From the sequence record MW269952.1: DNA of 64,000 nt. One strand, written 5' to 3'. The DNA is from Escherichia phage P479. Numbering within the stretch: the stretch's first letter is position 1; the number at the start of each line of letters is the position of its first letter. Below the pieces are notes generated by a model. It saw only the letters and a list, made by a program, of their open reading frames with translations. It made no database searches and was not told the DNA's origin. Shown here one piece after another: positions 1 through 60,226 of this stretch. The position numbers and the translations under genes were made by a program.

Positions 1-118
1 CTTTTGTATCTGGTCCGCCTAAACATTGAGGAACAACATGGTGAGATTCTTTGTATCCAGTCAATTTTCTAGATTTGGCTCGGTTCATTAAATTCTCATA
101 TATTAAAGCATAATTCAT
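1..118 (-). CDS. HNH homing endonuclease, N-terminal part (gene continues beyond the left window edge)
   Basis: Manual translation of the - strand from ATG at 116-118: MNYALIYENLMNRAKSRKLTGYKESHHVVPQCLGGPDTK..., with the same ESHH-(V/I)-(V/I)-P-(K/Q)-C-(L/M)-GG motif as the HNH ORF at 59552-60226. Not in the ORF track because truncated. Confidence 0.5.
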   Translation of the reverse strand, partial: MNYALIYENLMNRAKSRKLTGYKESHHVVPQCLGGPDTK

Positions 119-121
119 TGT

Positions 122-4422: not shown

Positions 4423-4581
4423 GGCTAAGAAAGAAGTTAAAGTTGTTGATGGCTCCTCCAAACGCGCTGGTTACAAGCGTGCGTCCAACAAGCGAATCAA
4501 TCAGGTGACTGATAAACTTCAGGCTCGTGCTCGTGCGGTATTGCGTGCCGATGCAGCTTGCTTTGGTAAGCCGAAAGCATA
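4423..4581 (+). CDS. small basic protein, 52 aa
   Basis: ATG at 4423 with upstream agag; MAKKEVKVVDGSSKRAGYKRASNKRINQVTDKLQARARAVLRADAACFGKPKA; followed directly by a terminator. Below the ORF-track size cutoff. Confidence 0.4.
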
Positions 4582-4587
4582 AGTTCA

Positions 4588-4615
4588 GGGACTCTTCGGA
4601 GTCCCTTTTTTATTT
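4588..4615 (+). terminator. rho-independent terminator
   Basis: ggactc-ttcg-gagtcc hairpin followed by a T-run (ttttttatttt). Confidence 0.7.
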
Positions 4616-4626
4616 TCCATAAAGGG

Positions 4627-4656
4627 GTTTACAACAGGGTTTGACCAGTACATAAT
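4627..4656 (+). promoter_or_regulatory. T4-type early promoter (GTTTAC, 18 nt, CATAAT) with conserved leader gattccatactgagtta
   Basis: gtttac 4627-4632, cataat 4651-4656; a near-identical cassette lies at 27629-27699. Confidence 0.55.
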
Positions 4657-4697
4657 GATTCCATACTGAGTTACCAAATAAAACACTGGAGAATAAA

Positions 4698-5066
4698 ATG
4701 AAAATCAATCTTAACTCATACATCAAAGGTAAAGACCACGACGGGTACAAAGCCATTGAAACTAAAGAAATGCAATGGCACTTGTATAAAGAACAATTTG
4801 AATTTGTTGGTTGCATGACTCCAGAAGGTCCTTCTGATGACTTCTCTTGGAAAATTATGGTAACAAACTTTTTTACTGGTGATACCTACGAACTGAAAAC
4901 TATCGTAACTGGTAAGATTCGTTGTAAGACCTATGAAGATGAAGAAACTGGTTATTCTGAAGATGTTACATGGTATCAAAATGGTCGCACCACTGCAGAC
5001 CTTCTGATTGAAAAAATGAAAGCTAAGGGTGAATTAAATTTAGATAATTGGATTAAAGTCGCATAA
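4698..5066 (+). CDS. hypothetical protein, 122 aa
   Basis: ORF track; RBS ggag upstream. Confidence 0.5.
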   Translation: MKINLNSYIKGKDHDGYKAIETKEMQWHLYKEQFEFVGCMTPEGPSDDFSWKIMVTNFFTGDTYELKTIVTGKIRCKTYEDEETGYSEDVTWYQNGRTTADLLIEKMKAKGELNLDNWIKVA

Positions 5067-5137
5067 AACAGTTTACTTTGGTACAGGTTATGATATTATA
5101 GACCTGTACCAACAAATGAAAACAACTGGAGAATAAA

Positions 5138-20194: not shown

Positions 20195-20422
20195 TTAGAA
20201 ATCTTCGTCTTCTTCGTCGTCCATATCCTCAAGCTCGGCGCGTTTACCGGCAAGAGCATCACGAACACTGATATCATCGGAATCTTTCAGTTCAGCTTCT
20301 TTGCTGCGTTTCTTATAATAGCCTTCCAACTCCTTCAGACCGTCCATGGTCTGACAGGAACCAATCTTAGCCATAAAGCCTTCAATTGATGCTTCGTACA
20401 TAATTTCTTCGAAGGATTTCAT
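20195..20422 (-). CDS. small acidic protein (positional equivalent of T4 UvsW.1)
   Basis: 75 aa with an acidic C-terminus (EDMDDEEDEDF); lies downstream of uvsW, separated from it by the HNH gene. Confidence 0.45.
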   Translation of the reverse strand: MKSFEEIMYEASIEGFMAKIGSCQTMDGLKELEGYYKKRSKEAELKDSDDISVRDALAGKRAELEDMDDEEDEDF

Positions 20423-21207
20423 TATATTTCCACCTGTTTAATAAATTTATCGACCATTTTCCCATAGTGTACTTTAGGATATCCAGCTTCGACAGCGATT
20501 TTGGTAAATCCCGTTACTTTAGGTTTATTGTTATTTATCCAAAGTAAAAATAACTCGTCATATAATAGCCAATGCGGATATTTTTTGGCATGAGTCTCTT
20601 TCCAATTTTTGGAATGGTCTTCACTTCTAAAAGATTTTTTAACACCTTTATTTGCCTTTCCCGCCTTAGAACATGTCGCATAATCACCCGCCTTGACAGG
20701 AGTAAATCCTTTCATAGCTTTAGATTTTTTGTCACGCGTTTCCTGAGACTGTTTGGACCCGGTGTTTTTTGCCCAGGCCTTTTCCAAAGCTTTTAATTTC
20801 GCGGGAGTGAATCCGACTTTTCGCATGGCGTCAATATGTATTTGGAGACGTTCTGCGGACCATTCATATGAACCATGATTATTACCCATCAAAGCTTCAC
20901 TAATTAAATGTGATGCCTTTTCTTTAAGCAGTGTAATGGTTCTTGAACTAACTTCTTTTAGGCGTCGACCGTTTGTCATACCAAATGCTGCGCGCCATAA
21001 TTTACCACCTTGTGCTTTTGCTAAAATAACATGAGCTAATATATGTTCACGAACTGTTAAAGCAACTAAATTATTAGGATGGTTGGAACCTCCAACCGAC
21101 TTTGGTATAATATGATGTATTTCAATTCGACAAGGAGCAGAGGTCTTTGTCCAACCCCTTGTCCTTGCATTTGAAATTAAATCATCGTAAATTTTTTGAT
21201 AATTCAT
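20422..21207 (-). CDS. HNH-family homing endonuclease (Mob-like)
   Basis: 261 aa; N-terminal EIHHIIPKSVGGSNHPNNLVALTVREH is an HNH motif; ATGA-type overlaps with both neighbours. Confidence 0.7.
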   Translation of the reverse strand: MNYQKIYDDLISNARTRGWTKTSAPCRIEIHHIIPKSVGGSNHPNNLVALTVREHILAHVILAKAQGGKLWRAAFGMTNGRRLKEVSSRTITLLKEKASHLISEALMGNNHGSYEWSAERLQIHIDAMRKVGFTPAKLKALEKAWAKNTGSKQSQETRDKKSKAMKGFTPVKAGDYATCSKAGKANKGVKKSFRSEDHSKNWKETHAKKYPHWLLYDELFLLWINNNKPKVTGFTKIAVEAGYPKVHYGKMVDKFIKQVEI

Positions 21208-22703
21208 AGTTCCACATGTTTCACTACATAGTTAAAACGTTCATCAGCATATCGTTGAATACGTTCAAGGCCGTGTTTAAGAAGATAGTTCAAATGAACA
21301 TATTTCTTTTTAGCGTTTGCTGATTTAGGACGGACCCCCATGTCGTCAACGATATCCCAAACATTTGCTTGCGATTTGGATGCGTGTTTTCGAAGTACAC
21401 GACCGATTGTTTGAAGGACAATTACCTTTGATTTTACACCGTGGGCGAAAATAATATGATGGAGGTTTTTAACGGAAATCCCCGTCGAGAATACACCGTA
21501 TGAAGCTACAACAATAATTCCCTTTCCATTCTCTGCCATGACCTTCAGAGCATTACGGGTTTCGGTATCGACTTCCCCAGAAACATAATACACTTTTTCA
21601 TGACCAGCTTCTTTAAGCATTTCAAACATCGATTTGCCGTGCTCGATATTCTTAAACATCAAAAAGACGTTTTCATCTTTTTTAGAAAGCTTGAGTGCAA
21701 GGTTTGTTACCCATTTATTTCGGCGTGTAGCTTTTGTAATTACCTTGATTTCATCCTGATAAGTTTTACCTTTCATTTTAACGGTGAATTCATCAGGGTA
21801 ACGAAGGAAAATACTATTTATTTTAAGGTCAGTAACCTGACCATCTTCCATCAATTTCGATGTTGATACTGGTTTAAAGATATCACCAAACAGACCCATA
21901 TATTGCATAAGGTTGGCTTTGCCATCACGGAGTGAACCTGACAGACCAAATTTAAACATGCAATTCGTAAGGCCTTCGATAACCGTCGAAATCGATTTAC
22001 CTGTAGCCATGTGGCATTCGTCATTCATAAACTGGCCAAACTGTTCAAACCATTCTTTAGGTTGTTTTACAGCCGTCTGATAAGTCGATACATAAATCAT
22101 CGCATCAGAATCGCGTTTAGTCCCAGAACGAATACCCAGACAAGCTGCACGAGGGAAAAGCCGATAATCAACAAAGTCATTAATCATCTGGTCAACAAGG
22201 GCCGTTGTAGGAACAAGGATAAGCACCTTGCCTTCATAGTTCTCGAGATAATATCGCGCCAGAAGCGCCTGGATGAGGCTTTTACCTGCAGACGTAGGTA
22301 AGTTCAGAATCTTTCTTCTGTTGACCAGACCATCATATACGGCGTCAGATTGATACCAATGGGGCGTTATCTTGGTATTGCCTGAATAGATTTCTTTTGA
22401 CTCGACCCATTTGTCGAATTCTTCGCGAGAGATTTCTTCTTTCTCGGTGATTTGCGGGTCAATCCAGAATGAATAACCAAACTGGTCAGCGAACTTTTTA
22501 ATTTGATTAACCAAACCGTATGGTAATTTACGATTGTAATCCAGGAGGCGGATTCGTCCGTCCCAAACTCCCTGCTTGAACTTTGGATTGAAGCGATAGT
22601 TTTCAGCTTCGAAGCTGAAGTAATCACGGAGTTCGTAGAAGATTCCATCTTCACATTCAACATGCACGTGACTAAAATTTAGAAAGTTGATTTTAATATC
22701 CAT
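21204..22703 (-). CDS. uvsW: UvsW DNA/RNA helicase
   Basis: N-terminus MDIKINFLNFSHVHVECEDG...LPTSAGKS (Walker A) and DECH box; matches recalled T4 UvsW. Confidence 0.85.
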   Translation of the reverse strand: MDIKINFLNFSHVHVECEDGIFYELRDYFSFEAENYRFNPKFKQGVWDGRIRLLDYNRKLPYGLVNQIKKFADQFGYSFWIDPQITEKEEISREEFDKWVESKEIYSGNTKITPHWYQSDAVYDGLVNRRKILNLPTSAGKSLIQALLARYYLENYEGKVLILVPTTALVDQMINDFVDYRLFPRAACLGIRSGTKRDSDAMIYVSTYQTAVKQPKEWFEQFGQFMNDECHMATGKSISTVIEGLTNCMFKFGLSGSLRDGKANLMQYMGLFGDIFKPVSTSKLMEDGQVTDLKINSIFLRYPDEFTVKMKGKTYQDEIKVITKATRRNKWVTNLALKLSKKDENVFLMFKNIEHGKSMFEMLKEAGHEKVYYVSGEVDTETRNALKVMAENGKGIIVVASYGVFSTGISVKNLHHIIFAHGVKSKVIVLQTIGRVLRKHASKSQANVWDIVDDMGVRPKSANAKKKYVHLNYLLKHGLERIQRYADERFNYVVKHVEL

Positions 22704-22731
22704 GATGATTCCAAGGTAATAAATATATCTA

Positions 22732-22739
22732 TATTTATA
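22732..22739 (-). promoter_or_regulatory. T4-type late promoter for uvsW
   Basis: + strand tatttata = TATAAATA on -, 29 nt upstream of the uvsW ATG. Confidence 0.55.
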
Positions 22740-22757
22740 CACTAACCGAGGTTCATC

Positions 22758-54621: not shown

Positions 54622-56364
54622 TTAGCCAATGTCAATCCTCGAACCATCAATAGTATATTGACCAGATGCAATAGAACTCATTGTTGACATTGTTTCGGAC
54701 CAATTGCCAGCCACGGTCATATCAACGTTTCCATTAACGGACCATTTGACATTACCATTTACCGTATAATCATGGTTACCTTCGACAAGAGTTTTTGCGT
54801 CACCTTTAACAGTTATTTCAGCATTACCTTCGACCAGAATACTTACATTACCTTTGACAATAATTGTACCGTCACCTTCAATGGTTTTGGTTTCATTCCC
54901 ACGAATATGAATGCTTTCGTTTCCATCGGTCTGACGACGAACGTTAGCCATATTGTAATAGGTTTCATCACCACCAACGTTGACTTTATTATTACCACCA
55001 ACATAAGTACTCGAATCACCCTGGGTCATATAATAACCATCAGCTACAGTCTTCGAAGTCTTACGACCATCCGGTGCAACTTCCTCGTAGGAACCGGTCG
55101 GGTGAATCAGTCGATAACGTTCTTGTCCAGGGGTGTTATCGAATTCCTGAACATGTCCGCCTTCAGTTTGCATTGTCTGCACATAAGGATATTCGCCCTT
55201 GTAACTGGATTCTGGCTCTTTAAATAGAATCCTCGTATCTTCTGGAGTCCACGGGTCGGCTGGGTCAGAATTTGTAGGGGCTGCAAAGGTTTGAATCATC
55301 CTATATGAACGTCCTTTAAATGACATTTCTTTAGGGGCCATAATACCATATGATTCCATGTTACCTGTGAGGATAATCATTGATACCCTTGATGCACGGC
55401 CTTTAGTTTGGTTAAACCATACAGAATCACGAGCGGCATCAAATGCTTTCTTATAATCTCCGGCTAACATTGCAGCGAGCATCGTTTTAAATTTAGCAAG
55501 CCCACTCAATCCCATTTGGAAAGCCATGTTTTCAAGAGCCATTTGTCTCGAACGGTTTTCTTTATTGTAAACTGGACCCACAACACTATGCCGGCCTATA
55601 TCGTTTTGTACTTTTTTAAGGTCTTCTTGGAATAATTTAGAGGCCTCGTCCATTGATATTGCACCAGGGTTACCTTTAACTTCACGACCTATTTGATTAG
55701 ATAATATTTTGTTTATCTGATTCATATCTCTAATAGGTTGTGGTGCAATTAAGTGTCCTATACCTATAGTAGGATAACCTTCGGTGTCCCAATATACTTT
55801 CAAACGAAGACCTTCATCACGGTGAAGCATATTTTCAATTGTGAAATTAGGATTATCATCTGGCTTAACTTGACTCAAATCAAGGCCATCGGGGTTAATA
55901 CCAAGGTCAAGGTTTGCATCCTGAATTACGTTCGAAGTTGCATCATAACCGACCTCACCGCCTCGGTTGAGCGCAGCAGCATCATTACCTACATAAAGTG
56001 GATATTGTCCTGTTGGGTCAGAGAATCCTTCGTTGGGATTTGCTTTTTGTCTTGAGGCTGAACCATATGTACCAATAACAAGCCCGTTGAGTTTCCACTT
56101 GTCTAAAAAGTGACCATATACTTGAGTCCCTGGCACCATACCGGTCATTGCAGTTTGAATACCAGAAACTGATGCAGATGATGTTGGCATCAATACAGAC
56201 ATCCATGGCAGGTCTTCAGTTCTGATACCTTTTACAGGCCCTTGCGATTTCTCATATGGATGCATACCCCATACACGAACACGAACACGACCTTGTTGAA
56301 GTGGGTCCATTCGGTCTTCGACAACACCGACGAACCAACTTACATTATCTGACATATTAATCAT
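54622..56364 (-). CDS. 5: baseplate central spike with tail lysozyme domain gp5
   Basis: 580 aa (T4 gp5 575 aa); C-terminal beta-helix repeats (VxGxxxxxV-type periodicity); synteny. Confidence 0.85.
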   Translation of the reverse strand: MINMSDNVSWFVGVVEDRMDPLQQGRVRVRVWGMHPYEKSQGPVKGIRTEDLPWMSVLMPTSSASVSGIQTAMTGMVPGTQVYGHFLDKWKLNGLVIGTYGSASRQKANPNEGFSDPTGQYPLYVGNDAAALNRGGEVGYDATSNVIQDANLDLGINPDGLDLSQVKPDDNPNFTIENMLHRDEGLRLKVYWDTEGYPTIGIGHLIAPQPIRDMNQINKILSNQIGREVKGNPGAISMDEASKLFQEDLKKVQNDIGRHSVVGPVYNKENRSRQMALENMAFQMGLSGLAKFKTMLAAMLAGDYKKAFDAARDSVWFNQTKGRASRVSMIILTGNMESYGIMAPKEMSFKGRSYRMIQTFAAPTNSDPADPWTPEDTRILFKEPESSYKGEYPYVQTMQTEGGHVQEFDNTPGQERYRLIHPTGSYEEVAPDGRKTSKTVADGYYMTQGDSSTYVGGNNKVNVGGDETYYNMANVRRQTDGNESIHIRGNETKTIEGDGTIIVKGNVSILVEGNAEITVKGDAKTLVEGNHDYTVNGNVKWSVNGNVDMTVAGNWSETMSTMSSIASGQYTIDGSRIDIG

Positions 56365-56996
56365 AATGCCTTCCTCTGTTTTAAAATATTTTTAACTATG
56401 GAAATATTATGCTCACATATATTTCGATTGAATTGGTAAAAATCAAATCCTAACTTTTTAATATGTCGAGACACATAACGGGTTTCAACCGACGTTGGTA
56501 TAAACCCCATGTTCTTAGTTATTGTCTGCTCATTTTCAAAATGCTTTTTAAGCTTATCAGAAAGAATCTTCTTTTTCTCTTCTGAACATTTTTTGCCATA
56601 ATTTGGTGCATTTACTCCATGCTGGTCTCGCTTTTTTCCATACATGGGATTATTTTTACCTGAGTTATTTGCACTCATAATATCTTTAGTTTTCTGGCTA
56701 TGTTTTCGACCTTTAAAGTTATCATGTTTTAAAAATCCACCGGAGCCGCCTGGTTTTAAATTGTATGAGTTTTCATTAAGAACAACAAGTTCCTTTTCAA
56801 GTTCATACATTTCTTGTTTGGAATCAACAAATTTTAATATTTCTTTTTTGAAATTTTCAATGCCATATTTTAGTATGGCACGTTTAATTAATTTACCTGA
56901 GCCCATATATCCATCATCCATATTTGATGTACTATGCGCCCCGATATAAAATTTGCCGTTAATATTATTGGTTATTTTATATACATAATAAAACAT
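56361..56996 (-). CDS. GIY-YIG homing endonuclease (Seg-like) inserted between genes 53 and 5
   Basis: N-terminus YYVYKITNNINGKFYIGAHS is a GIY-YIG motif; NUMOD3-like repeats (NPMYGKK, NAPNYGKK); start and stop overlap the neighbouring genes. Confidence 0.75.
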   Translation of the reverse strand: MFYYVYKITNNINGKFYIGAHSTSNMDDGYMGSGKLIKRAILKYGIENFKKEILKFVDSKQEMYELEKELVVLNENSYNLKPGGSGGFLKHDNFKGRKHSQKTKDIMSANNSGKNNPMYGKKRDQHGVNAPNYGKKCSEEKKKILSDKLKKHFENEQTITKNMGFIPTSVETRYVSRHIKKLGFDFYQFNRNICEHNISIVKNILKQRKAL

Positions 56997-57598
56997 TAGA
57001 GTGCCTTTTCCATTTCACGGATTAATGCCGAAATAAATGATTCGATATCATTAGGGTCGATTATCTTTATTTCTCGTTTATATTCATTTTTACGAATAGC
57101 ATCTTCATAGATATCTACTGCAGCTAATGGACCTTCATATTGTGGGTACAATTTATTCTTATCACCTTTATCATACCAGGTGTACGGATTATCAGGATAA
57201 GAAACAAGATTCCAGAATTTTTCACCATCTTCATTTACATGATAAAGAACCTGATTACCACCTATATTCGAATAGCGTTGAATTGATGCCTGATACGATG
57301 ATTCTTGTGAACATATCCAACCATAATACGGGTCATAGATATCATTAAGCATAAGGAGAACCCAATAGAGTTGAGTATTACCATAGAGCTGATATGCAAG
57401 TTCTTCAGGTCTTGGAGCTCCAGCGATGTAATATGTTTTCGGTGTATAATTAACCGCAACCTTATCAAAATAGGCGCGATAGTTTCTGAAGATGTCAGTC
57501 ATTGGGATGCTTAAGACGTCTTCTTTCGTTAATGATGCCGAGTTTTTTCTGATTGTTTTAGCATCATAATCAATTGGGTTAAAAAATGAAAAAAGCAT
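56996..57598 (-). CDS. 53: baseplate wedge protein gp53
   Basis: Start at the internal ATG (MLFSFFNPIDYDAKT...) matching the recalled T4 gp53 N-terminus. Confidence 0.8.
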   Translation of the reverse strand: MLFSFFNPIDYDAKTIRKNSASLTKEDVLSIPMTDIFRNYRAYFDKVAVNYTPKTYYIAGAPRPEELAYQLYGNTQLYWVLLMLNDIYDPYYGWICSQESSYQASIQRYSNIGGNQVLYHVNEDGEKFWNLVSYPDNPYTWYDKGDKNKLYPQYEGPLAAVDIYEDAIRKNEYKREIKIIDPNDIESFISALIREMEKAL

Positions 57599-57610
57599 AA
57601 AGCCTCCATT

Positions 57611-57618
57611 TATAAATA
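57611..57618 (+). promoter_or_regulatory. T4-type late promoter for gene 4
   Basis: tataaata 28 nt upstream of the gene 4 ATG, with RBS aggagg. Confidence 0.55.
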
Positions 57619-57646
57619 AGTATATCAATATTTATTAGGAGGCTAT

Positions 57647-58099
57647 ATGGCATACTCCGGGAAATGGCAACCTAAAAACGTTGCAAAGTACAAAGGAGAC
57701 TGGAAGAAAATTACCTACAGGTCAAACTGGGAAAAATTTGTATTTAACTGGTTGGATAATCATCCAGATGTGGTGCAATGGGGGTCAGAGACCGTTATCA
57801 TTCCATATTTTAGTAATGCGGATGGTAAAAAACGCAGGTATTACATGGATATGTGGGTAAAATTTTCAAATGGTCAACAATTTTTCTTTGAGGTTAAACC
57901 CAAAAAGGAAACAAGACCTCCAGCAAAACCAGTTAATACGACCGCTGCGAGCAAGAAGAGATTTATGAACGAAATGTATGTTTGGGCTGTTAATTCGGAT
58001 AAATGGAAAGCCGCTCAAGCTGTAGCTGATAAAATGGGCATCCAATTTAGATTGATTACTGAAGATGCACTTAGGAAAATGGGTTATAAGGGTTTATAA
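57647..58099 (+). CDS. 4: head completion protein gp4
   Basis: 150 aa; MAYSGKWQPKNVAKYKGDWKKITYRSNWEKF... matches recalled T4 gp4; divergent from gene 53 as in T4. Confidence 0.75.
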   Translation: MAYSGKWQPKNVAKYKGDWKKITYRSNWEKFVFNWLDNHPDVVQWGSETVIIPYFSNADGKKRRYYMDMWVKFSNGQQFFFEVKPKKETRPPAKPVNTTAASKKRFMNEMYVWAVNSDKWKAAQAVADKMGIQFRLITEDALRKMGYKGL

Positions 58100-58746
58100 T
58101 GTATACGGTATATCAAATAACAAATAAAATTAATAACAAAATTTACATCGGTGTGCACAAAACCGACAATATCGATGACAAGTATATGGGCACAGGGAAA
58201 TTAATATTAAAAGCTCATAAAAAATATGGTATTGAAAATTTTCAAAAGGATATTTTATTTGTTTTTGATTCCATCAATGAATCAGAGAACGAAAATTTAG
58301 CCTTTGCTAAAGAGGCTGATTTAGTCGACCAAGAATTTGTTAATCGGCCCGACACGTACAACATTGATTTGGGTGGTAGAGGCGGTCGCGGCCGCTCCGC
58401 TTCTGTTAGAAAACGTATTGGTGATGCCCAGCGAGGAAAACCTGGTAAAAAACCATCAAAAGAATCTCGTTTAAAAATGAGTTTGGCACACAAGGGTAAA
58501 AAATTATCCGAAGAACATAAGATAAAAATTGGCAATGCTGGCCGTGGTAAAAAGCGTCCTGAAAGTGCAAATGAAGCGGTTAGACAACATTTATTAGGGG
58601 TTCCTCGTAAAGAAGAACATAAAAATAATATGAGAATTGGTTTTCTAAATACACCTACCAAAATATGTCCACACTGTGGATTAGAATGCAAACCAGCCCC
58701 ATTTAAAAGATGGCATGGCGATAATTGCAAAGCGAGGAAAGGATGA
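58099..58746 (+). CDS. GIY-YIG homing endonuclease (Seg-like) inserted between genes 4 and 2
   Basis: N-terminus [19 protein letters not shown] is a GIY-YIG motif; NUMOD3-like repeats; C-terminal CPHCG...HGDNC zinc-finger-like; overlaps the gene 4 stop and gene 2 start. Confidence 0.75.
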
Positions 58747-59570
58747 GTATTTTTACATTTATCAATGAATCTGCAGATAAACCAGGTCCGAAACCCAGTA
58801 AATCAGAACAACAATGGGTTGAAATAGGGGTTGAATTTTATACAGCAAAAGAAAAGGGAATGACCTCGAAGAAGTTTGCTGAAGAGAAAGGAATCAACTA
58901 TTCGACCTTTACCAAAAGCATGTCAAGATATCATTCGAGAATTCAGACTGCTTATAAAGTATCCAAGCTCAAAAAGAAACCTGCCGGTAAACTTACGAAG
59001 GCTGAACGTCAGCTGATAATGGTGAATAGCTTTAGAAAGAGCATAAGAGATAAGATTGCTAACGAAGGCGCTGCAAGCAACACCAAATCTGCCAGATGGT
59101 TCGCTGAGACAATTAAGAAATCAGTTCGTGGTCACGTAACGGCTAAACCTCAACCGGGTAAGATTTATGCTTATATCTATGATGCAAAGCATAAGGATAC
59201 TCTTCCGTACTGGGATAAATATCCGTTAATCATTTATCTTGGGCTAGGTAAGCACAATTTGATGTATGGTTTGAACTTGCACTATATTCCACCGAAGGCA
59301 CGTCAAGAGTTCCTTGAGGAACTTCTTAAGCAATATGCTAATACTCCTACGATTACGAACAAGACTCATCTGAAGATTGATTGGTCAAAGGTGAAGGGAT
59401 TTAAAGGGGCTGACCAGATGATTAAAGCATATATACCTGGCAATATAAAAGGTACTATTACTGAAATCAAGCCCAGCGACTGGGCAAACGTTGTATTACT
59501 CCCCCTTCAGCAGTTTTTTTCAAAAGGCAAAAGATTTTCTTCACAGAAAGTATGGAGAAATTCACTTTGA
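58743..59570 (+). CDS. 2: DNA end protector protein gp2
   Basis: About 275 aa from the internal ATG (T4 gp2 274 aa); synteny 4-2-3-1. Confidence 0.75.
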
Positions 59571-60226
59571 ATTATCAGTTTATATATTCATCGTTAATTG
59601 AAAGGGCCCGTAACAGGGCCCTGATTTCATATAAAGAATCTCATCACATCATTCCGAAATGTATGGGCGGTTCAAATGCTCCGGATAACCTAGTCGATTT
59701 GACTCCCGAAGAACATTATGTAGCCCATCAACTATTGGTTAAAATATATCCTACAAATCCAGGTTTAAGTTTTGCTGCCACATCTATGAGCCAGTCAAGC
59801 AAGTATTTGAAACGCAATAATAAATTATTTGGCTGGTTAAGACGCAGACACGCTGACAATATTTCTAAAAGCCAAACCGGTAAAGTTTACTTTAATAATG
59901 GTGTCAAATCGATAAAACTATTTCCATGGGAAGATGTTCCGGATGGGTTTGTCAAAGGAAGACATTACAGTCCAACCAAGGGTACAAAACATTCTCGCAA
60001 TAATGGACATTTTAAAAATAAAGAGATTCAGGATGAATTGAGAAAGCGCCGGTGGGAAAAAGATAGGCAAGAAATGTGTAAAAACTTCGGAGTTGATACC
60101 ATCGAGCAAGCTCGAGAGTTGGTCCTAGCATATAAAAAGGAATTGCATCCTCGATACTGGGTAAAGCCAATGTTGGAACGTTATCCGTTTATGACTAAGC
60201 TAAGACTTAACACATTAATAAAATAA
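59552..60226 (+). CDS. HNH-family homing endonuclease (Mob-like) inserted between genes 2 and 3
   Basis: [30 protein letters not shown] motif; paralogous to 20422-21207 and to the partial gene at 1-118; overlaps the gene 2 3' end. Confidence 0.7.

Follow-up and report, generated by a model that had tools for sequence, protein, structure and literature searches.

We analysed a stretch of 64,000 nucleotides (nt; hereafter the window) from Escherichia phage P479 (MW269952.1), a T4-like member of the VR7/SP18 group in the genus Gaprivervirus, and focused on two open reading frames (ORFs) embedded among its essential genes that probably encode functional, free-standing GIY-YIG homing endonucleases. 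They are referred to as HEG1 (56361-56996, minus strand), located between genes 53 and 5 (53|5), and HEG2 (58099-58746, plus strand), located between genes 4 and 2 (4|2). Both were present where a preliminary description of the window had placed them; the same description had them flanking gene 4 on either side, which holds for HEG2 (adjoining gene 4) and not for HEG1, since gene 53 intervenes. The order along the window is 5-HEG1-53 / 4-HEG2-2, followed by an HNH ORF (a third endonuclease gene, which the preliminary description lacked), gene 3 and gene 1. The features of the locus are:

54622-56364, minus strand: gene 5, baseplate hub / tail lysozyme; start codon (ATG) overlapping the HEG1 TGA.
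56361-56996, minus strand: HEG1, 211 amino acids (aa), Seg-like GIY-YIG gene between genes 53 and 5 (Pfam, PHROG, motif alignment).
56996-57598, minus strand: gene 53, baseplate wedge (Pfam Phage_gp53, 7e-74; 603 nt in the annotation of relatives); its TAA overlaps the ATG of HEG1.
Between genes 53 and 4: putative divergent promoter region, 48 nt.
57647-58099, plus strand: gene 4, head completion, 150 aa; foreign allele from 57666 on.
58099-58746, plus strand: HEG2, 215 aa, Seg-like GIY-YIG gene between genes 4 and 2 (Pfam, PHROG, family profile, AlphaFold model).
58743-59570, plus strand: gene 2, DNA end protector; start codon (ATG) overlapping the HEG2 TGA.
59552-60226, plus strand: third endonuclease gene, HNH / MobB-like, 224 aa (PHROG 655, visible HNH motif).

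Each endonuclease gene overlaps its neighbours at both ends, and the start/stop overlaps that had been described earlier are exact when read from the sequence (TAATG upstream, ATGA downstream). Thus, the gp53 stop and the HEG1 start share TAATG (56994-56998, minus strand), the HEG1 stop and the gp5 start share ATGA (56361-56364, minus strand), the gp4 stop and the HEG2 start share TAATG (58097-58101, plus strand), and the HEG2 stop and the gp2 start share ATGA (58743-58746, plus strand). At empty sites (in VR20, VR25, P8, RZ and others) gp53/gp5 and gp4/gp2 are joined by direct ATGA overlaps; hence, the comparison with insertion-free relatives that the preliminary description had proposed revealed precise insertions into clean ATGA sites. 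The empty 53|5 site reads GGAGAAGGCNYTATGA, the end of gene 53 leads into HEG1 in the window as GGAAAAGGCACTCTAATG, and HEG1 itself ends (56361-56380, minus strand) in GAGGAAGGCATTATGA, which leads into gene 5 and holds both its Shine-Dalgarno sequence and the ATGA overlap. GAGGAAGGCATTATGA is homologous to the end of gene 53 at empty sites, so that the last ~13 nt of HEG1 are a copy of the displaced gene 53 end, and an AAGGCA microhomology is found at either end of the insert. HEG2 ends in GCGAGGAAAGGATGA where the empty 4|2 site has GGATGGAAAGGATGA, and the Shine-Dalgarno sequence of gene 2 (GAGGAAAGG) is located within the HEG2 3' end. Since each endonuclease gene provides, at its 3' end, the downstream ribosome-binding site (RBS) and the ATGA, the expression of genes 5 and 2 should be left undisturbed by the insertions.

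The occupancy of these junctions was assessed in a collection of 50,697 phage records, in which a 7-kb query around the HEG1/HEG2 region matched 587 records (query coverage at most 91% in every one of them; top relatives PSD2001, P8, P896, VR25 and VR7, identity 90-97%). Full-length close copies were found in five records for HEG1 and in two for HEG2, and no other record in the collection carries all three endonuclease genes of the window together. Among close relatives every combination of presence and absence of HEG1 and HEG2 was encountered: PSD2001 harbours both, P896 only HEG1, P8 only HEG2, and VR20, VR26, SP18 and ~12 others none; VR25 and VR7 have only the HNH gene, UPEC07 adds to it a second, different HNH-type ORF ahead of gene 4, and RZ, DK-13 and fPSFA have an unrelated 242-aa ORF at 4|2. 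Identical insertions in all relatives, which the preliminary description had named as the sign of ancient fixed genes, were thus not found, the insertions being absent from most of them. Each lineage holds its own junction across diverged phages (53|5 for HEG1, 4|2 for HEG2), a fidelity that fits the earlier proposal that the two enzymes probably have different target sites. Homologues of both genes are already in the databases, part of them annotated as homing endonucleases, and a literature search combining VR7 with homing endonuclease retrieved no paper.

The identity of the two genes was established by sequence profiles and, for HEG2, by structure prediction. HEG1 matched Pfam NUMOD3 (47.9 bits), SegE_GIY-YIG (PF19835; 27.0, cut-off 25) and GIY-YIG (24.3, cut-off 22.6), HEG2 matched NUMOD3 (24.2 bits, cut-off 20.4) and scored under the cut-off for PF19835 (21.1), and both belonged to PHROG 314 'homing endonuclease' (5e-49 for HEG1, 2e-53 for HEG2). 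Used as single sequences neither of them retrieved anything relevant from a PDB sequence search; a family profile (40 homologues) was required, and it picked up 1LN0, the catalytic domain of I-TevI (E=1.5e-5). The HEG2 AlphaFold model (pLDDT, the predicted local distance difference test, 89.8; strands at 2-9, 15-21 and 48-56) had I-TevI catalytic domains as its best three matches in the PDB, with probabilities of 0.99-1.00 and TM-scores of 0.53-0.60 (target-normalised), but E-values of only 7e-3 to 1e-2, and with ~21-25% sequence identity in the catalytic domain. This fold comparison covers HEG2, and the assignment of HEG1 follows from its Pfam GIY-YIG and SegE_GIY-YIG scores, both above the cut-offs. 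GIY-YIG N-termini and NUMOD3-like repeats, noticed in both ORFs at the outset, are therefore backed by Pfam and PHROG, by the profile and by the model (the GIY-YIG score of HEG2 being just below the cut-off). The domains are arranged as follows:

56727-56996, minus strand: HEG1 catalytic domain (~aa 1-90).
56622-56711, minus strand: HEG1 NUMOD3 match (aa 96-125).
58099-58383, plus strand: HEG2 catalytic domain (~aa 1-95).
~aa 100-185 of HEG2, plus strand: helical NUMOD3-like repeats.
58663-58731, plus strand: HEG2 C-terminal module CPHCG...KRWHGDNCK, zinc-finger-like (aa 189-211).

The GIY and YIG motifs, which in the superfamily lie 10-11 residues apart on a three-stranded sheet, are intact, as YVY (4-6) and YIG (17-19) in HEG1 and as TVY (3-5) and YIG (16-18) in HEG2. 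Five residues that are invariant across the 40 homologues (Y5, Y16, G18, E72 and N88, in HEG2 numbering) align with I-TevI Y6, Y17, G19, E75 and N90, and their counterparts in the alignment of HEG1 are Y6, Y17-I18-G19, E67 and N79. HEG1 and HEG2 share 62% identity over their first 61 residues, beyond which they become unalignable, and the zinc-finger-like C-terminal module of HEG2 has no counterpart in HEG1 (alignment), whose C-terminal ~60 aa (without a family match) presumably bind DNA. The view that the two are diverged paralogues thus stands for the catalytic domain, to which paralogy is restricted, the DNA-binding halves being different.

Two segments of the locus recur in other phages with boundaries that differ from those of the genes themselves:

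56368-57033, minus strand: transferred HEG1 cassette, ~660 nt, comprising the HEG1 ORF, short of a few bases at its 3' end, and the terminal 26-37 nt of gene 53.
57666-58746, plus strand: mobile module of 1081 nt, in which the variant gene 4 allele is joined to HEG2.

PSD2001 has no mismatch to the window over the 655 nt at 56368-57022, and its flanks are 6-11% diverged (32 mismatches in 500 nt of gene 5, 51 in 474 nt of gene 53). In a phage from another genus, Dhakavirus KIT01, the identical stretch extends over 56371-57033, with only three mismatches in the 636 nt of HEG1, all of them at the extreme 3' end, and it is bordered by a gene 53 with 153/602 mismatches (25%) and a gene 5 with 148/1000 (15%). 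The exact HEG1 protein was recovered from 15 public contigs, always at 53|5, and across 11 copies (55 pairs) the divergence of HEG1 averaged 0.3% (maximum 0.6%) against 10.7% (maximum 26.7%) for the flanks; gene 53, which lies between HEG1 and HEG2, is not conserved among carriers. Near-identical copies in strongly diverged flanks are incompatible with vertical descent, and the comparison indicates that HEG1 was recently transferred horizontally, also across genera. Other Dhakaviruses hold an older version of the gene (83.5% identity in IME540), and in phage vB_EcoM_FB (L016:2501-3137) a Dhakavirus-type copy with a 1-nt indel, by which the ORF is cut to 513 nt, is still placed at 53|5. The FB copy, the many empty sites and the identical cassettes fit a cycle of invasion, decay and loss, with all stages of the life of a homing element present. 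It had also been suggested that operon-embedded endonuclease genes are hard to lose, a claim on which these data bear weakly: most relatives have cleanly empty sites, and the FB copy is frameshifted yet retained as DNA, which fits genes that are easier to inactivate than to delete.

If HEG1 and HEG2 were decaying pseudogenes, or ancient fixed genes repeatedly lost in relatives, the frameshift in FB would be expected; the window ORFs are nevertheless intact, with conserved motif residues and omega values far below 1 (see below), and vertical descent followed by loss leaves unexplained the near-identical copies in 15-25% diverged flanks, so we regard this explanation as extremely improbable.

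A comparable pattern, on a larger unit, was found for HEG2. Up to nucleotide 19 of gene 4, the promoter region included, the window is 100% identical to its endonuclease-free relatives; a sharp breakpoint follows at 57665/57666, with 100% identity to VR20 up to 57665, ~71% from there to 58098, and a return to ~97% from the first base of gene 2. The resulting variant gene 4 allele (78% identity to the usual allele at protein level) occurs in 6 records (5 phages) of the collection, each with an ORF inserted at 4|2 (HEG2 or the 242-aa ORF of the RZ type), and all of its Gaprivervirus carriers share the same left breakpoint. The exact HEG2 protein was found in eight contigs, always after the 150-aa variant gp4. 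In three contigs (L027, L029 and L031) the module has 0/1081 mismatches, and gp53 is 10-12% and gp2 2.5-4% diverged from the window, while a second haplotype of the module, with 31 synonymous differences, sits in a contig with a nearly window-identical gene 53. Given the identical module beside a diverged gene 53, and the converse haplotype, HEG2 and gene 4 move between backgrounds as a unit.

HEG2 homologues (65-67% identity) were also detected in metagenomic T4-like phages, likewise at gp4|gp2, and the gp4 of these carriers has signatures of the window allele (e.g., KW.PKN near the N-terminus, GYKG at the C-terminus), which suggests that the module may have entered Gaprivervirus from such a lineage. 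An origin of the variant allele within a sampled genus was considered and rejected, as every other gene 4 allele of the collection is about equally far from it (72-76%) and only the metagenomic carriers of HEG2-like genes share its signature residues. The gene 4 product matches the Pfam TnsA-like endonuclease N-terminal domain (1e-21); therefore, the essential gene dragged along by HEG2 is itself nuclease-like.

A further observation at 4|2 concerns RZ (L006:3365-4093), DK-13 and fPSFA (L010:2299-3027), in which the 242-aa ORF stands beside a variant gene 4 of ~90% identity. This ORF has a weak match to the DUF4379 treble-clef zinc finger only, ends in the native gp4 C-terminus (...GWKG), keeps GGATGGAAAGGATGA, and may represent a different nuclease family competing for the 4|2 site.

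HEG1 and HEG2 are under strong purifying selection. The 21 differences between HEG2 and its PSD2001 copy are all synonymous (none nonsynonymous; probability under neutrality 3e-15), the P8 copy differs by 23 synonymous changes and one nonsynonymous change, and omega for HEG2 is 0-0.01. For HEG1, comparison with the 16%-diverged copy of Dhakavirus IME540 gave an omega of 0.08, comparable to genes 53 and 5, with 22 of the 25 amino-acid changes falling in the C-terminal half; the HNH gene (59552-60226), compared with the UPEC07 copy, yielded 0.10. Given this selection and the intact motifs, mutation of the catalytic residues, the mark of pseudogenes in the preliminary description, is not a feature of these genes.

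The same data bear on two further explanations. Ordinary homologous recombination between co-infecting phages could have spread the endonuclease genes as passengers, having lost or never possessed the ability to cleave these sites, as T4-like phages recombine heavily, mosaicism extends throughout the region, and the HEG2 unit is flanked by conserved sequence on both sides; random recombination fails to account for an identical block that consists of exactly the endonuclease ORF plus 26-37 nt in 11 backgrounds and two genera, or for an inert ORF with 0 nonsynonymous substitutions among 21 changes, and we give this explanation little credence. Another possibility, which overlaps with homing, is that the genes are kept for the benefit of the phage (by excluding the markers of competitors, promoting nearby recombination or amplification, or regulating through DNA binding) and are not purely selfish. 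Their purifying selection equals that of essential neighbours (omega 0-0.08), and a role of T4-type SegB in immune evasion is reported in a 2026 paper (PMC13096335). Against this, a self-propagating element would be predicted to leave just such identical cassettes, one copy is frameshifted, and most Gapriverviruses are without both genes and yet are viable isolates; we thus hold a role of this kind to be unlikely, though less so than passive recombination.

We therefore consider, with a probability of roughly 85%, that HEG1 and HEG2 are functional free-standing GIY-YIG endonuclease genes of the T4 Seg type that spread by intronless homing. Several points weigh against this. Such strong purifying selection is also compatible with a function benefiting the phage, and the HEG2 pattern could be obtained by ordinary homologous recombination of the module, without a nuclease-made break. 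The Pfam GIY-YIG score of HEG2 (21.1 bits) is slightly under the cut-off of 22.6, and the catalytic Arg27 of I-TevI, located where helix 1 begins, has no aligned residue, HMMER putting it opposite HEG2 N24, in an insertion-bearing loop. There is no invariant Arg anywhere in the subfamily (H20, Y29, K34 and K42, being conserved, are candidates), and T4 SegC has the same pattern; since the whole subfamily, including the active SegC, is without it, the missing Arg27 equivalent is not evidence of inactivation, and the active site, given this gap, appears to be incompletely mapped.

Endonuclease genes embedded in operons of essential genes had been proposed from the outset, and the distribution of promoter motifs agrees with this, late promoters being recognisable only before genes 4 and 53. 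The sole exact T4 late promoter within 54.5-61 kb (TATAAATA, 57611-57618, plus strand) lies 28 nt upstream of gene 4, and AATAAATA (57629-57636, minus strand), a 7/8 match located 30 nt upstream of gene 53, is replaced at that position by an exact TATAAATA in Dhakavirus relatives. By analogy with the T4 consensus, TATAAATA and AATAAATA would act as divergent late promoters for genes 4 and 53. The 54.5-61 kb scan gave no late-promoter match belonging to HEG1 or HEG2 themselves. Sigma-70-like promoters (26, against 22.5 in shuffled sequence) showed no excess and were not used as evidence, and neither did intrinsic terminators (5 against 4.3), none of which was convincing between the endonuclease genes and their neighbours. 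RNA hairpins that hide the RBS have been described for some T4 endonuclease genes; no signal for hairpins masking the RBS of HEG1, HEG2, gene 5 or gene 2 was obtained (z -0.25 to +0.60). With no promoter of their own, no separating terminator, and overlapping start and stop codons, HEG1 and HEG2 look like promoter-less passengers of late operons that are translated by coupling, and they are probably co-expressed with the neighbouring essential genes.

The sequence of events that we propose for homing is predictive with regard to nuclease activity, target positions, and the timing and level of expression. HEG1 and HEG2 would be transcribed late, within the essential operons 53-HEG1-5... and 4-HEG2-2..., and each would be translated at low level through termination-reinitiation at its TAATG overlap. 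In mixed infections with a relative that has the empty allele, the enzyme would cut this allele near 53|5 or 4|2, and double-strand-break repair on the endonuclease-carrying template would copy the gene into the cut genome. As HEG1 moves as a tight cassette of ~660 nt, its cleavage site is predicted to be no more than some tens of bases away from the junction. For HEG2, because a 71%-identical gene 4 offers no usable homology, repair would have to resolve in the conserved gene 4 start/promoter region, and would thereby drag along nearly the whole of gene 4 (~430 nt foreign) with the endonuclease gene.

The closest T4 match of HEG1 is SegC (45.9% identity over aa 2-135), a free-standing GIY-YIG enzyme encoded between genes 5.1 and 5.3 and listed as active (PMC2988022). 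The two share the signature Y..Y.G.H.T.N.DDGYMGSG...KYGI.NF...E...YN..GG, have NUMOD3, are promoter-less, overlap the upstream ORF and belong to the same late baseplate operon, with segC two genes downstream of gene 5 (PMC2988022). They differ in the insertion site (5.1|5.3 versus 53|5), in the extent of the upstream overlap (20 bp for segC, 1 nt, within TAATG, for HEG1) and at the C-terminus, where SegC has a weak I-TevI_DNA-bd match and HEG1 has none. In T4, segC, segF, segG and mobE are likewise known to be promoter-less and to overlap their neighbours (PMC2988022); for mobE (an HNH gene at nrdA/nrdB) a UAAUGA-type stop/start overlap has been interpreted as translational coupling, by which the synthesis of the endonuclease is limited (PMC2988022), and HEG1 and HEG2, although GIY-YIG and not HNH genes, have the same type of overlap with an upstream essential gene. 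Intronless homing, localized marker exclusion and co-conversion are known for SegF with gene 56 and SegG with gene 32 (PMC2988022). Like them, HEG2 is a Seg gene placed beside an essential gene whose allele is inherited together with the endonuclease; unlike them, the co-inherited allele is 29% diverged, spans nearly the whole gene and has one fixed breakpoint, and the linkage is deduced from comparative genomics, not from crosses. With I-TevI the window proteins share the catalytic fold (HEG2 model), the GIY and YIG motifs, the Glu75/Asn90 equivalents and a modular layout (catalytic domain, linker, DNA-binding domain), whereas I-TevI resides in the T4 td intron and has Arg27, and the window genes are non-intronic.

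On a broader scale, Barth, Dunham and Seed (2023; PMC10448857) found homing endonuclease genes at genetic-exchange boundaries and in 'HEG islands'. As in these islands, the endonuclease genes of the window are clustered around essential structural genes, at sharp changes in identity, and their DNA-binding modules seem to be shuffled; the conserved blocks of the islands exceed 10 kb, in contrast to the 0.66 and 1.08 kb units described here.

Much of the mosaicism and marker exclusion seen in T4-like phages is driven by free-standing homing endonucleases, and experimental study of such genes has, to our knowledge, been limited to the T4 set. HEG1 and HEG2 belong to this well-known kind of mobile element, and what is currently understood of its workings is not changed by them. 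What is added here are the dimensions of the mobile units (0.66 and 1.08 kb), the movement of HEG1 between genera, the obligate linkage of HEG2 with a foreign allele of the essential gene 4, the third endonuclease gene and an insertion hotspot, together with unusually clean natural evidence that points to the expected locations of the cleavage sites and with natural donor/recipient phage pairs that are at hand. In therapeutic phage cocktails, co-infecting relatives would be expected to exchange these segments.

The third endonuclease gene (59552-60226) shows the HNH motif HHIIPK...DNLV...EHYVAH and belongs to PHROG 655 (4e-56); neither the ORF nor its VR25 homologue (annotated as MobB-like) had a Pfam match at E<0.01, and NCBIfam gave sub-threshold matches only. 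The stop codon of gene 2 is the precise point of insertion, and the HNH gene has its own ATG 19 nt within gene 2; the sequence is ...GAGAAATTCATAATCTATT at the empty site and ...GAGAAATTCAC, the insert, and TAATCTATT at the occupied one. It is present in VR25, VR7, UPEC07, TH22, TH55 and fPSFA, and absent from VR20, PSD2001 and RZ. We regard the 5-53-4-2-3 segment as an insertion hotspot. A more far-reaching and tentative idea, against which we would place the odds, is that of a drive made up of two obligately linked genes, HEG2 and the foreign gene 4, in which the nuclease would target the common allele of the essential head-completion gene and replace nearly all of it with a resistant, 29%-diverged version; the hotspot would then be home to at least five endonuclease lineages (HEG1, HEG2, the RZ-type 242-aa ORF, the UPEC07 HNH ORF and the HNH gene at 2|3), competing or cooperating to reshuffle morphogenesis genes between genera.

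Some minor observations were made on endonuclease-like ORFs and their surroundings. In UPEC07 (L005:2935-3642) an ORF with HNH and NUMOD3 occupies the promoter region between genes 53 and 4, ahead of gene 4, and its C-terminal CEHCG...YKRWHGENCK matches the C-terminus of HEG2, which suggests that DNA-binding domains may have been shuffled between GIY-YIG and HNH endonuclease genes. A metagenomic contig (L012) with a HEG2 homologue at 4|2 encodes, directly after gene 2 and thus in the position of the HNH gene, a 202-aa ORF (4478-5086) with no Pfam match. A regulatory or terminator-like element has been reported for mobE, and a G+C-rich hairpin (59603-59622, plus strand; 7-bp stem, AGGGCCC GTAACA GGGCCCT), ~50 nt into the HNH ORF and within a 124-nt region that folds better than shuffled sequence (z=-2.9), could by analogy be such an element of this gene. 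Elsewhere in the window, HNH-type homologues of the 59552 ORF were found at 20422-21207 (minus strand, 261 aa), where the ATG shares an ATGA with the stop codon of a 512-aa ORF for a UvsW-like helicase (21204-22742), and at 5-121 (minus strand), where the ORF is cut by the window start.

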